Of a DNA stretch of 60,381 nt, positions 28,317 to 32,316 are shown in pieces. The stretch is from positions 1 through 60,381 of the forward strand of contig CAKZML010000273.1 in NCBI GenBank assembly GCA_937128475.1, in the 5' to 3' direction. The notes below the pieces were generated by a model, which was not told the origin of the DNA, did no database searches, and was given only the letters and a program-made list of their open reading frames with translations. The translations under genes were made by a program, and so were the position numbers. Origin of the DNA: an uncultured Chromatiales bacterium (GTDB lineage: Bacteria > Pseudomonadota > Gammaproteobacteria > Steroidobacterales > BM003). Positions within the stretch are counted from its first letter, which is position 1. Each line of letters starts with the position of its first letter.

Positions 28317-28712
28317 CTACAGGAACAGCAACACCAGGTTGCCGATGGCCAGGGCCAAAAGGATTATCCAGGTAAATAGCGTCCCGTAGAAACGGCCAAC
28401 GCTGCGACCCTTTGTGGAGGCCAGGCCCCAGGCATGCATAACGCGAGCGATAAAAATTCCGGCGCCGGCGACATGCAGCAACCAACCCGACAGGTGATTG
28501 AGTTCCGCCAACAGCAGCAGGAAAAGGATGGTGGGCACGTACTCAACGAAGTTCGCCTGGACACGGATTGCGCGCTCAAGCTCCGGATTATCGGCATCAC
28601 CCAAATTAACCCCGAGGGTCTGGCGAAAACGCACCACCCGATATGAGAGCCCAAGCAGCAGCAGGGCGCACAAGGAAGCGTAGAGCGTGGTGACGGGTAC
28701 CAGGTTAATCAT
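28317..28712 (-). CDS. MAPEG-family membrane protein (YecN/YhhL-like)
   Basis: T.LYA, RAIRVQANFVEYVP and ARVMHAWG; about four hydrophobic helices. Confidence 0.88.
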   Translation of the reverse strand: MINLVPVTTLYASLCALLLLGLSYRVVRFRQTLGVNLGDADNPELERAIRVQANFVEYVPTILFLLLLAELNHLSGWLLHVAGAGIFIARVMHAWGLASTKGRSVGRFYGTLFTWIILLALAIGNLVLLFL

Positions 28713-28805: not shown

Positions 28806-29399
28806 CTACGCAAGACGCGCGCACTGGGAATACCTGAAACATCCCGTCTGGTGATCATTGACCAGTCCCGCCGCCTGCATGTGAGCGTACATGATAGTGC
28901 TGCCGACAAACTTGAACCCCCGCTTTTTAAGATCCTTTGACAAGGCGTCGGACTGCTCGGAAGTGGCAGGCAGTTGCTTATGGGTTTTCCAGCGGTTCTG
29001 AATGGGCTTGCCGCCAACAAAACCCCAGATGTAATCATTGAAGCTGCCGAACTCCTCTTGCACCTGCAAAAACGCCCTGGCATTGGTCACCGCGGCGGCC
29101 ACCTTCAGGCGATTACGAATAATCCCGGTATCCTGCAGCAACTGCTGAATCTTCTGGTCATCAAATTCAGCCACCACCCGGGGGTCGAAATTACAGAAAG
29201 CCTTGCGGTAACCCTCACGCCTGTTCAGCACCGTCGCCCAGCTCAATCCGGCCTGGGCGCCCTCAAGTATCAAGAATTCGAATTGTTGCCGGTCATTGCG
29301 AACAGGCACACCCCACTCATGGTCGTGATAGTGGTAATACAGATCGTTGCCACCTTCTACCCAGCGGCAGCGGGACTTTCCGTCATCCAAAACACTCAT
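28806..29399 (-). CDS. tag: DNA-3-methyladenine glycosylase I
   Basis: Motifs RCRW, YHDHEWG, FEFLILEGAQAGLSW, IIRNRLK and FKFVGSTI.YAHMQA.GLVNDH...C. Confidence 0.97.
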   Translation of the reverse strand: MSVLDDGKSRCRWVEGGNDLYYHYHDHEWGVPVRNDRQQFEFLILEGAQAGLSWATVLNRREGYRKAFCNFDPRVVAEFDDQKIQQLLQDTGIIRNRLKVAAAVTNARAFLQVQEEFGSFNDYIWGFVGGKPIQNRWKTHKQLPATSEQSDALSKDLKKRGFKFVGSTIMYAHMQAAGLVNDHQTGCFRYSQCARLA

Positions 29400-29424
29400 G
29401 GGATACCCCGGGGTTCATCACTTC

Positions 29425-29464
29425 AAAATAAAAACGGCCCGTGACCTTTGCAGGTCACGAGCCG
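29425..29464 (-). terminator. Rho-independent terminator of the EGKCG-repeat gene
   Basis: Minus strand CGGCTCGTGACCT-GCAA-AGGTCACGGGCCG followed by TTTTTATTTT. Confidence 0.85.
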
Positions 29465-29505
29465 AACTTTAGCGCGTGCCACATGGTGTGGCACAGGGTC
29501 GGGCG

Positions 29506-30015
29506 TTATTCTTTATCGCCGCCGCACTTGCCCTCGGCTTTGTCGGCTTTTTCACCACCGCACTTGCCCTCACCGCATTTACCCTCGGCCTTGTCGGCTT
29601 TCATGGCTTCGCCGCACTTGCCTTCACCGCATTTGCCCTCGGCATGGGCGGCTTTTTTATGGTCACAATTTTCTTCATCGCACTTGTGCTTGCTGTGGCC
29701 GGCTTTCATGCCTTCACCGCACTTGCCTTCAGCATGGTGAGCTTTCATGGCTTCACCACACTTGCCCTCACCGCATTTACCCTCGGCTTGTTTGGCTTTC
29801 ATGGCTTCGCCACACTTGCCTTCACCGCATTTGCCTTCGGCTTCAGAGGCCTTTTCGCCTCCAGCACCCTCGGTGCCCGAGGCAACCATGTAGCCCGAAG
29901 ACAGGCCAGCCATCGCAAACGGGCCAGTATCGGCGTTGGCGGTGACGCTAAGGCCACCGGCCAGGGCGGCGCTGACTGCAATTGCAACAGGCTTCAACAA
30001 ATTCATCTTTCTCAT
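29506..30015 (-). CDS. Secreted EGKCG-repeat low-complexity protein (HvfA-type RiPP metallophore precursor)
   Basis: RBS GAGGAG; Sec signal ending ANA; PF....L..GY.VA motif; 10 EGKCG repeats; 12 Cys and 6 His. Confidence 0.85.
   Translation of the reverse strand: MRKMNLLKPVAIAVSAALAGGLSVTANADTGPFAMAGLSSGYMVASGTEGAGGEKASEAEGKCGEGKCGEAMKAKQAEGKCGEGKCGEAMKAHHAEGKCGEGMKAGHSKHKCDEENCDHKKAAHAEGKCGEGKCGEAMKADKAEGKCGEGKCGGEKADKAEGKCGGDKE
29521..29838 (-). repeat. Coding tandem repeats (15-bp EGKCG units within ~54-bp higher-order units)
   Basis: Recurrent + strand CCGCAYTTRCCYTC units with synonymous variation, in frame with the minus-strand ORF. Confidence 0.9.
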
Positions 30016-30079
30016 CTTTGCATCTCCTCGATTATTGCTCGCCTTTTGGGCGAATCACTACTGCGCAATCGGAGACACT

Positions 30080-30112
30080 GGTATCTCAGATACCCCAATA
30101 CACGCGGGTTAT
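30080..30112 (-). promoter_or_regulatory. Candidate ECF-type promoter with an overlapping palindrome, upstream of the EGKCG gene
   Basis: Minus strand ATAACC-N16-TCTGA (30112-30086); perfect palindrome GGTATCT-C-AGATACC at 30080-30094. Confidence 0.35.
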
Positions 30113-30266
30113 ATTTGTCCTGGCATTTCCCGGGAAACGACTCACGGGTCTGCTCTTGGAATTTCAAACAATCATGCACGTAACGACGGTAATTTGCAGT
30201 GTTTAGTTTGGAATAAGTCCACTACAAATCTTATTCTAAAAACGGATATTTCTATTTTATTATAAA

Positions 30267-30279
30267 AATCAGCGTGTTA
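30267..30279 (+). promoter_or_regulatory. IHF-like site in an AT-rich divergent intergenic region
   Basis: AATCAGCGTGTTA matches WATCARNNNNTTR and is preceded by an A/T tract. Confidence 0.45.
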
Positions 30280-30434
30280 TATATCAACGTCCGACCAGGA
30301 AATCTTTCTGGCCCGCGGGGTGAGAACCTGCCAGGACCAGCCCCTGTGACCGGGAAATGCCAGCTAAAAGCATAATCCGACAAATCCGTCACCCTCGGAA
30401 ACCACGGGCGGAAACTTCTCTCCGAATCTGTTAA

Positions 30435-32316
<1,882 letters not shown>

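Follow-up and report, generated by a model that had tools for sequence, protein, structure and literature searches.

A stand-alone EGKCG-repeat precursor gene and a precursor-less hvfBCX gene set in a Steroidobacterales genome

A 60,381-nucleotide stretch of DNA from an uncultured Chromatiales bacterium of the order Steroidobacterales (contig CAKZML010000273.1 of assembly GCA_937128475.1; hereafter the window, meaning this whole stretch) contains a small gene with ten EGKCG motifs. Judging by its family-model match and its repeats, the gene is an HvfA-family precursor of the Lys-Cys captophorin (oxazolin/fontiphorin) type. We found that this hvfA gene stands apart from any maturation enzyme, between tag and hemB, and that the only hvfB-hvfC-hvfX set of the genome lies on a different contig, where it has no precursor gene of its own. 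The same split is the usual layout in those relatives of the same order that keep the enzymes. With a probability of roughly 0.7, we consider that the HvfA-family precursor is modified in trans by the distant HvfB/HvfC pair, exported, and able to bind Cu(I).

The window gene encodes an HvfA-family precursor

The precursor gene (29506..30015, minus strand; 169 codons plus stop) yields a product of 169 amino acids. Counted on the translation, the EGKCG motif occurs ten times, in groups of 2+2+1+2+2+1, which agrees with the number given in a preliminary description of the window made from its letters alone. The motifs are found in a core region (residues 60-165; 29521..29838, minus strand) that is built from units of ~17 residues, AEGKCGEGKCGEAMKAxx, and broken by the central segment HSKHKCDEENCDHKK. 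This segment, which includes HKCDEENCDH, carries two extra Cys residues and brings the Cys total of the precursor to 12. Compared to the NCBIfam model NF050137 (KCGExKCG_twice, HvfA family), the protein scored 75.8 bits in five stretches, the cut-off being 19.5, and its repeat type agrees with the EGKCG description in the main text of PMC12452194. A Pfam search of the precursor returned no match. The DUF2282 domain of Buf1 bufferins, with its four conserved Cys residues, had no match either in the protein (Pfam) or in a search of the genome.

The N-terminal part of the protein resembles that of a secreted precursor. By inspection of the translation, residues 1-28 (29932..30015, minus strand) look like a signal peptide, comprising the basic stretch MRKMNLLK, a 16-residue hydrophobic core and the sequence TANA directly before D29, and a like architecture is seen in 27 aligned homologues. 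A short linker separates this stretch from the repeat units. After the signal-peptide-like stretch, the alignment of 27 precursors revealed a conserved box, PFAMAGLSSGY (residues 32-42; 29890..29922, minus strand), in which F33, G41 and Y42 never vary and P32 is kept in at least 90% of the sequences. The pattern P-F-x7-G-Y is common to precursors that adjoin hvfB and to those linked to tag. We regard the box as a candidate recognition sequence for HvfC, and such retention would be expected of a relocated precursor that HvfC can still recognise.

The only hvfBCX set of the genome lies on another contig

The preliminary description had called the EGKCG precursor an orphan and had offered maturation in trans by a distant cluster as one of two explanations, to be checked by searching the genome for DUF692 and DUF2063 genes and for further EGKCG open reading frames (ORFs). 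It had also reported that DUF692, DUF2063 and DoxX genes are missing from the 60 kb, and indeed none of the three had a match on the window contig (C273). Across the entire genome (G000), a single DUF692 gene and a single DUF2063 gene were detected, adjoining each other on contig C123, and DoxX matched three times, on C123, C88 and C26. The genes on C123 follow the order rsxE, nth, DUF1841, hvfB, hvfC, hvfX. The three hvf ORFs, which overlap or directly follow one another, were recognised by their own NCBIfam models, with hvfB (locus L008 on C123, 9402-10268) scoring 441.2 bits against NF003818 (cut-off 360), hvfC (L008, 8645-9409) 308.6 bits against NF050145 (cut-off 142) and hvfX (L008, 7976-8569) 241.2 bits against NF050144 (cut-off 80). 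When compared to BufB, the multinuclear non-heme iron oxidase (MNIO) encoded on C123 reached 270.3 bits, under the cut-off of 310. Nine H/E/D/N positions of HvfB are invariant in an alignment of 33 sequences. The DUF1841 gene preceding hvfB (L008, 10364-10798, minus strand) was identified with 183.2 bits.

No second precursor turned up in the genome. The 95-nt gap between DUF1841 and hvfB on C123 holds no Cys-repeat ORF, a genome search with NF050137 returned the window ORF as its sole match, and a six-frame scan of the genome for G[KS]CG repeats gave ten motifs for this ORF and two for the next frames, which are noise-like. Given where each lies in its contig, hvfA and hvfBCX are separated by at least about 53 kb. 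The genome thus holds a precursor that lacks nearby enzymes and an enzyme set that lacks a precursor, and these data support maturation in trans. The earlier proposal of a distant cluster is supported by the single hvfBCX set, the sole EGKCG ORF and the co-occurrence of both in relatives.

The split is the usual layout in same-order relatives

The search covered 41 genomes from the order, among them that of the window. Being related, these genomes do not count as independent samples, and the absences given here mean that a gene was not found in the genomes searched. One unpublished genome, G022, enters some of the counts but none of the alignments, and is nowhere the sole basis of a claim. NF050137 matched in 19 of the 41 genomes, and HvfB exceeded its cut-off in 30. 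All 19 genomes with an EGKCG match were HvfB-positive, and such a match was missing from each of the 11 genomes in which HvfB did not exceed the cut-off. The hvfA gene adjoins hvfB in one same-order genome only, G038, where it is located directly upstream. Upstream sequence was available for 28 of the 30 hvfB loci, and in 27 of them, with G038 as the exception, the nearest gene was DUF1841 (21 loci) or nth (six loci). The gaps in these 27 loci, measuring 20-258 nt, hold no candidate precursor; without G022, the count is 26 of 27. In the well-assembled genomes G006, G007 and G026, which comprise 6-20 contigs, hvfA and hvfB are situated deep in separate large contigs, showing that the split is not an assembly artefact. 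Both loci are also present in G003, a member of the window's genus, with flanking genes at 88-96% protein identity. According to these data, the split is the usual layout in same-order relatives that keep the enzymes. The term orphan thus applies to the gene's immediate surroundings, where no MNIO is encoded, but does not denote an oddity of this genome, as the separation is the norm in the relatives searched.

The precursor locus is marked by tag. Of 30 tag loci, 20 have a Cys-repeat precursor upstream on the same strand, counting the window's own genome and G022. Among the other tag loci, one is ended by a contig edge and nine have no precursor, five of these nine belonging to genomes without HvfB above the cut-off (G001, G004, G014, G021 and G036). 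Eleven of the 30 HvfB-positive genomes lack an NF050137 precursor, five of which have a divergent precursor of the EGSCG or EF-hand type upstream of tag; precursors missed by the model are EGSCG-rich in G017, G020 and G023 and EF-hand-bearing in G039. Neither the domain model nor the region upstream of tag gave a precursor for the HvfB-positive genomes G012, G015, G018, G025, G027 and G034, with the tag loci of G015 and G034 not examined and no tag match in G012 and G025. Within the window's genus, G001 and G004 have neither hvfA nor HvfB above the cut-off.

Two side observations concern individual genomes. In G039, the EGKCG repeats of the tag-linked precursor (L079, G039:C14, 731-1378) are separated by EF-hand-like segments, and the end of a second EGKCG ORF, with a terminator-like hairpin of its own, is found in the 330 nt before this precursor, pointing to tandem precursors. 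Moreover, one MNIO below the cut-off (~243 bits against HvfB) is encoded in G001 (G001:C12:245936-246724) and in G004 (G004:C160:1684-2469), and may belong to a bufferin-type system.

Outgroups suggest that the precursor left an older cluster

A scan of named genomes yielded 29 loci, the nearest being those of a metagenome-assembled genome (MAG) named 'Chromatiales bacterium' (70% identity) and of Thiogranum MAGs. In 23 of the 29 outgroup loci, hvfB is found within 0.8 kb past the precursor. Seven of these 23 cis loci, belonging to two Thiogranum MAGs, Thiohalobacter, two Methylococcaceae, Methylotenera and a Lysobacterales MAG, have nth no more than 1 kb upstream of hvfA-hvfB, and in three of the seven DUF1841 is located in between. 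Going by outgroup synteny only, the older layout would have been nth-(DUF1841)-hvfA-hvfB-hvfC-hvfX, which the precursor left in the window's lineage. The position of DUF1841, between nth and hvfB in 21 of 28 same-order loci and before hvfA in the cis clusters of Thiogranum and Methylotenera, suggests that it may be an overlooked part of the hvf system.

Whether the split arose once was addressed with an HvfB tree of 33 rows, built by a quick method, in which 17 of the 30 inner branches are unresolved. The split, mapped as a label, needs three changes on this tree, of which the starred branches force only one. The tree is compatible with either answer, and a single origin is neither shown nor excluded by it.

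An ECF sigma factor in relatives and an RpoE-type box in the window's genus

Directly upstream of the precursor, relatives carry a gene for a DUF3379 protein, which scored 117.9 bits and has the motif H-x3-C-x2-C; this gene is itself preceded by one for an extracytoplasmic function (ECF) sigma factor of the PRK12517 subfamily. DUF3379 was detected in 22 of the 41 genomes and, as judged by comparing coordinates, adjoins the precursor in 18 of these 22, while the sigma gene was present in all 16 extended loci. The usual layout in relatives places ECF sigma, DUF3379 anti-sigma, hvfA, terminator and tag together, in this order, and rsxE, nth, DUF1841, hvfB, hvfC and hvfX at a second locus. Both loci share a promoter-like motif, TAATAA-N13-17-GGTC. 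In 12 of 16 loci, no more than 70 nt separate it from the sigma start, and in two more it is farther from the called start; upstream of hvfB, it is found on the correct strand at a distance of 27-199 nt in 15 of the relatives' 29 loci, with near-variants in three more. These arrangements suggest that, in relatives, a single autoregulated ECF regulon drives both loci. Of note, TAATAA-N14-GGTC is also present in Marinicella litoralis (L099 5782), 144 nt upstream of an hvfA gene that adjoins hvfB, and the ECF-type motif may therefore predate the split.

The window's genus appears to depart from this scheme. In relatives, as read from our own translation, hemB is oriented divergently upstream of the sigma gene, and the sigma and DUF3379 genes occupy the space between hemB and hvfA. 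In G000, hemB stands directly before hvfA, which looks like a deletion of the sigma/anti-sigma pair. The closest G000 relative of the ECF sigma factor is RpoE (29% identity; TIGR02939, 301.7 bits). Upstream of hvfB, the genus genomes G000, G002 and G003 share the sequence CGGAAC(C/A)ACC-N12-GGTCTGA at -76, with both boxes kept and a varying spacer. Its geometry, GAAC-N18-TCT, equals that of a promoter-like site before G000 rpoE, AGAACTT-N16-TCTAT, and an RpoE-type box was found upstream of hvfB in none of the other 27 hvfB loci. From these sites we would propose, tentatively and as a possibility below even odds, that the window's genus lost the sigma/anti-sigma pair, that the -35 element of hvfB changed from TAATAA to GGAAC with the GGTCTGA -10 element kept, and that the pathway thereby moved into the RpoE envelope-stress regulon, the two loci having been kept apart in the relatives sampled from the order and tied only by a shared ECF promoter. 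If true, this would constitute a natural and datable regulon rewiring of a natural-product pathway.

Transcription signals, neighbours and RNA-library contigs

Between hvfA and tag, hairpin analysis revealed an intrinsic terminator (29425..29464, minus strand) with a 13-bp stem, a 4-nt loop and a T-run. The stem (29464..29435, minus strand) contains nine G-C pairs among its 13, and stem and loop are followed by TTTTTATTTT. It starts 41 nt past the stop codon, exactly where a strong terminator had been reported. In 12 of the 13 loci examined, our own among them, an equivalent hairpin plus T-run comes after the precursor stop, with unrelated stem sequences. The neighbours had likewise been named correctly: the downstream gene tag (DNA-3-methyladenine glycosylase I; 28806..29399, minus strand) scored 227.7 bits against TIGR00624 (E 7.7e-68), slightly below the cut-off of 232.5, and the divergent upstream gene hemB (porphobilinogen synthase; 30468..31478, plus strand) scored 515.9 bits against NF006762. 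Past tag, the window encodes a MAPEG-family membrane protein (28317-28712, minus strand; 90.3 bits). The block hvfA-tag-MAPEG is syntenic, a similar MAPEG gene having been detected by tblastn in G002 of the same genus, in G005-G007 of the sister genus and in G026.

On the upstream side, a candidate sigma-70-type promoter, TTGATA-17-TATAAT (30259..30287, minus strand), matches 11 of 12 consensus positions and is uncertain. It would give rise to a leader of ~240 nt, and it agrees with the reach of the contigs from RNA runs, which extend to 30148-30223. An Rfam scan of 29300-30600 (E up to 1) gave no match and thus no known riboswitch or small RNA in this long leader. The leader contains a perfect 7-1-7 palindrome, GGTATCTCAGATACC (30080..30094), which a weak RpoE-like sequence, TAAC-N17-TCTGA (30086-30111), overlaps. 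The palindrome occurs once in the 3.06-Mb genome, is conserved in G003, and may be the operator of some regulator. As an operator common to both loci it was rejected, being unique in the genome and without a counterpart upstream of hvfB.

Twenty-three public runs contain the window stretch, six of them RNA libraries. We compared four estuary metatranscriptome runs (X8, X17, X20 and X21) with the window, and the ORF was covered by contigs in all four. In X21, cover was limited to 29504-30148, corresponding to the ORF and its leader; window parts without RNA-contig cover in X17, X20 and X21 were not taken as silence. The metatranscriptome contigs weakly support expression of hvfA. As a separate observation, one X8 contig departs from the window at 29769, within the repeat region, with 51 unmatched letters, and probably stems from a strain with another repeat arrangement.

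Proposed pathway and alternative explanations

In the pathway that we favour, the precursor would be made with a Sec-type signal peptide, and the Cys residues of its EGKCG motifs would be oxidised to 5-thiooxazoles in the cytoplasm by the sole HvfB of the genome, a multinuclear non-heme iron oxidase, together with its partner HvfC. The enzymes would come from the C123 hvfB-hvfC-hvfX operon, which is remote from the precursor gene. The modified protein would next be exported and, once in the periplasm, could bind Cu(I) within a response to envelope, metal or oxidative stress. One ECF sigma regulon, with TAATAA-N15-GGTC before both the sigma/anti-sigma/hvfA unit and hvfBCX, would link the two loci in relatives, and in the window's genus hvfB would be read from an RpoE-type GGAAC-N18-TCTGA box in place of the ECF motif. 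Our data show the family of the precursor, the lone maturase set without a precursor, the co-occurrence of the two, their conserved synteny, the common motif in relatives and the presence of the gene in RNA-library assemblies, and from these we infer modification in trans, export, copper binding and the acting sigma factor. A complex prediction of HvfB, HvfC and HvfA residues 1-92, each with an alignment, gave 0.53 compared to 0.41 for a control with chain 1 replaced, and counts neither way.

Several points weigh against this pathway or against parts of it. Modification of the precursor and its metal binding are predictions here, and the precursor scored 70.8 bits against the HvfA equivalog model NF050188, whose cut-off is 95, so that we file it at the family level and not as an HvfA equivalog. 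Two of the five genus genomes are without the whole system, which may be dispensable or decaying here, and Table 3 of PMC12452194 lists maturase-less EGKCG precursors in 67 of 2583 genomes. The genome itself, in which the window is contig C273, consists of 307 contigs totalling 3.06 Mb, and is 96% complete with an estimated contamination of 2.09%. Contigs from RNA libraries, which may contain DNA, are no proof of transcription, its strand or level, or the ends of transcripts. The preliminary description had called the gene monocistronic, which is shown only in part, as contigs from X20 and X21 break at the terminator and those from X8 and X17 bridge it.

The regulatory part of the pathway faces objections of its own. 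DUF3379 was found in none of the five genomes of the window's genus, as searched with a single protein and with the family model in our own 96% complete genome. With the sigma/DUF3379 pair not found in this genome and in four further genus genomes, the co-regulation seen in relatives is not directly transferable. Of the six occurrences of TAATAA-N13-17-GGTC in the window's genome, none is near hvfA or hvfB, and no motif was found in common between the sequences upstream of hvfA and of hvfB in this genome. The loose pattern GAAC-N17-19-TCTGA was found 54 times in G000, with ~55 expected by chance, so that the hypothesis of RpoE control draws its weight only from the conserved position of the box in three genus genomes.

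The second explanation given in the preliminary description, that the protein works unmodified, would make it a periplasmic, metallothionein-like metal buffer rich in Cys and His, with HvfBC acting elsewhere or on nothing. Such a role would fit a gene that is physically and transcriptionally apart from the enzymes, it has a parallel in the precursor-only genomes of PMC12452194, and the central HSKHKCDEENCDH segment could hold metal without modification. We nevertheless judge it unlikely, because an intact precursor-less hvfBCX operon has been kept in a genome with no alternative substrate candidate, because the 11 relatives without HvfB have no EGKCG gene, and because the N-terminal box common to hvfB-adjacent precursors is still present. 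Less credible still, in our view, is that the system is decaying in the genus and that hvfA is a poorly expressed or unregulated relic left behind by the loss of the sigma/anti-sigma pair. The distribution of DUF3379 (0 of 5 genus genomes compared to 22 of 41 overall), the state of G001 and G004, and the -10 hexamer of the sigma-70-like site, which is not kept in G003, speak in favour of decay. However, the ORF is intact with all ten motifs, HvfB, HvfC and HvfX each exceed a curated cut-off, G000 and G003 share 91% identity in the hemB-hvfA spacer, the -35 and -10 boxes of hvfB are kept in G000, G002 and G003 despite the varying spacer between them, and the ORF is present in all four RNA-library assemblies compared.

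The location of the two loci on separate contigs of a fragmented MAG with some estimated contamination also raises the question of whether hvfA and hvfBCX derive from different organisms and were paired by a binning artefact. Given that the two-locus layout recurs in relatives of 6-20 contigs (G006, G007 and G026), and that G003, from the same genus, has both loci with closely similar flanking genes, we consider a binning artefact highly improbable. Maturation in trans by the C123 enzymes is the reading that we favour.

Significance and comparison with known systems

[quoted passage not shown] As mining begins at the neighbourhood of the enzyme, split MNIO loci would be called precursor-less and their precursors would be called orphans. 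The supposed function of the family is unchanged by our analysis and the mechanism is unsurprising; the value lies in genome mining and in studies of regulation. The split layout lends itself to a clean natural test of whether the HvfC partner recognises its substrate in trans, the promoter motif could help to trace the remainder of the stress regulon, and the window's genus is a candidate case of a promoter that was rewired once its dedicated sigma factor had been lost.

The family, its enzymes, Cu(I) binding and the revised 5-thiooxazole chemistry have already been published (PMC11252979, PMC13097082, bioRxiv 10.1101/2025.11.18.689057), the captophorin heterocycle having been reassigned from an oxazolone/thioamide to a 5-thiooxazole (PMC13097082). 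The closest point of reference is the hvf operon of nontypeable Haemophilus influenzae, hvfX-hvfA-hvfB-hvfC, which produces oxazolin (PMC11252979). The window precursor resembles its HvfA in the signal-peptide-like N-terminus and the AEGKCGEGKCG repeats, and orthologues of HvfB, HvfC and HvfX exceed the NCBIfam cut-offs in the window's genome. In H. influenzae, however, hvfA is part of the operon, whereas the window precursor is encoded far from the enzymes on another contig. The window protein is also larger, with ten motifs in 169 amino acids compared to six modified Cys residues in 95 amino acids, and its non-repeat Cys residues form a Cys-x4-Cys pair in mid-protein, whereas HvfA has two before the repeats (PMC11252979). 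Fontiphorin (fonABC) and gonophorin are captophorins of the same Lys-Cys EGKCG class (PMC13097082, bioRxiv 10.1101/2025.11.18.689057), and by analogy a 5-thiooxazole, with a loss of about 4 Da per Cys and absorbance near 305 nm, would be expected in the window protein; captophorin turnover is reported to need at least two repeats (PMC13097082). In contrast to the window precursor, which has a separate locus with its own terminator, the precursor, MNIO and partner of the fontiphorin and gonophorin clusters are encoded side by side.

Stand-alone precursor genes, some of them single-gene transcription units and possibly modified from another locus, have been described before (PMC12452194). These Buf_EGKCG/oxazolin precursors are among the closest known counterparts of the window gene, and the main text of PMC12452194 does not analyse an individual case. 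The terms 'DUF1841' and 'endonuclease' are not found in that text, in a search that left its supplements and Fig. 3f aside and did not extend to DUF3379, tag or a shared promoter. In text searches of the literature, the term DUF3379 appeared in one paper, on an unrelated topic.

For regulation, the nearest parallel is the sigmaE-MseR operon of Neisseria meningitidis, NMB2140-NMB2145, in which an autoregulated ECF sigma factor and a zinc-binding (ZAS) anti-sigma factor control hypothetical genes, including a DoxX-like one, within the same sigma/anti-sigma operon (PMC2893595). The reference list of PMC13097082 includes a paper on Haemophilus RpoE2. As Neisseria pairs sigmaE with MseR, the relatives studied here pair an ECF sigma factor and an H-x3-C-x2-C anti-sigma factor (DUF3379) with hvfA. 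The Neisseria genes form one operon, whereas the relatives have two loci with a common promoter motif, and in the window's genus the pair was not found. The genes NMB2140-NMB2145 may be hvf homologues. Precursors encoded far from a single modifying enzyme are familiar from the prochlorosins, where many procA genes are served by one ProcM. That system relies on another enzyme class and on many diverse precursors, compared to one precursor and one enzyme set here. Seen against these systems, the precursor family and its stand-alone genes are already known, and the split two-locus layout is a variant of a known system.

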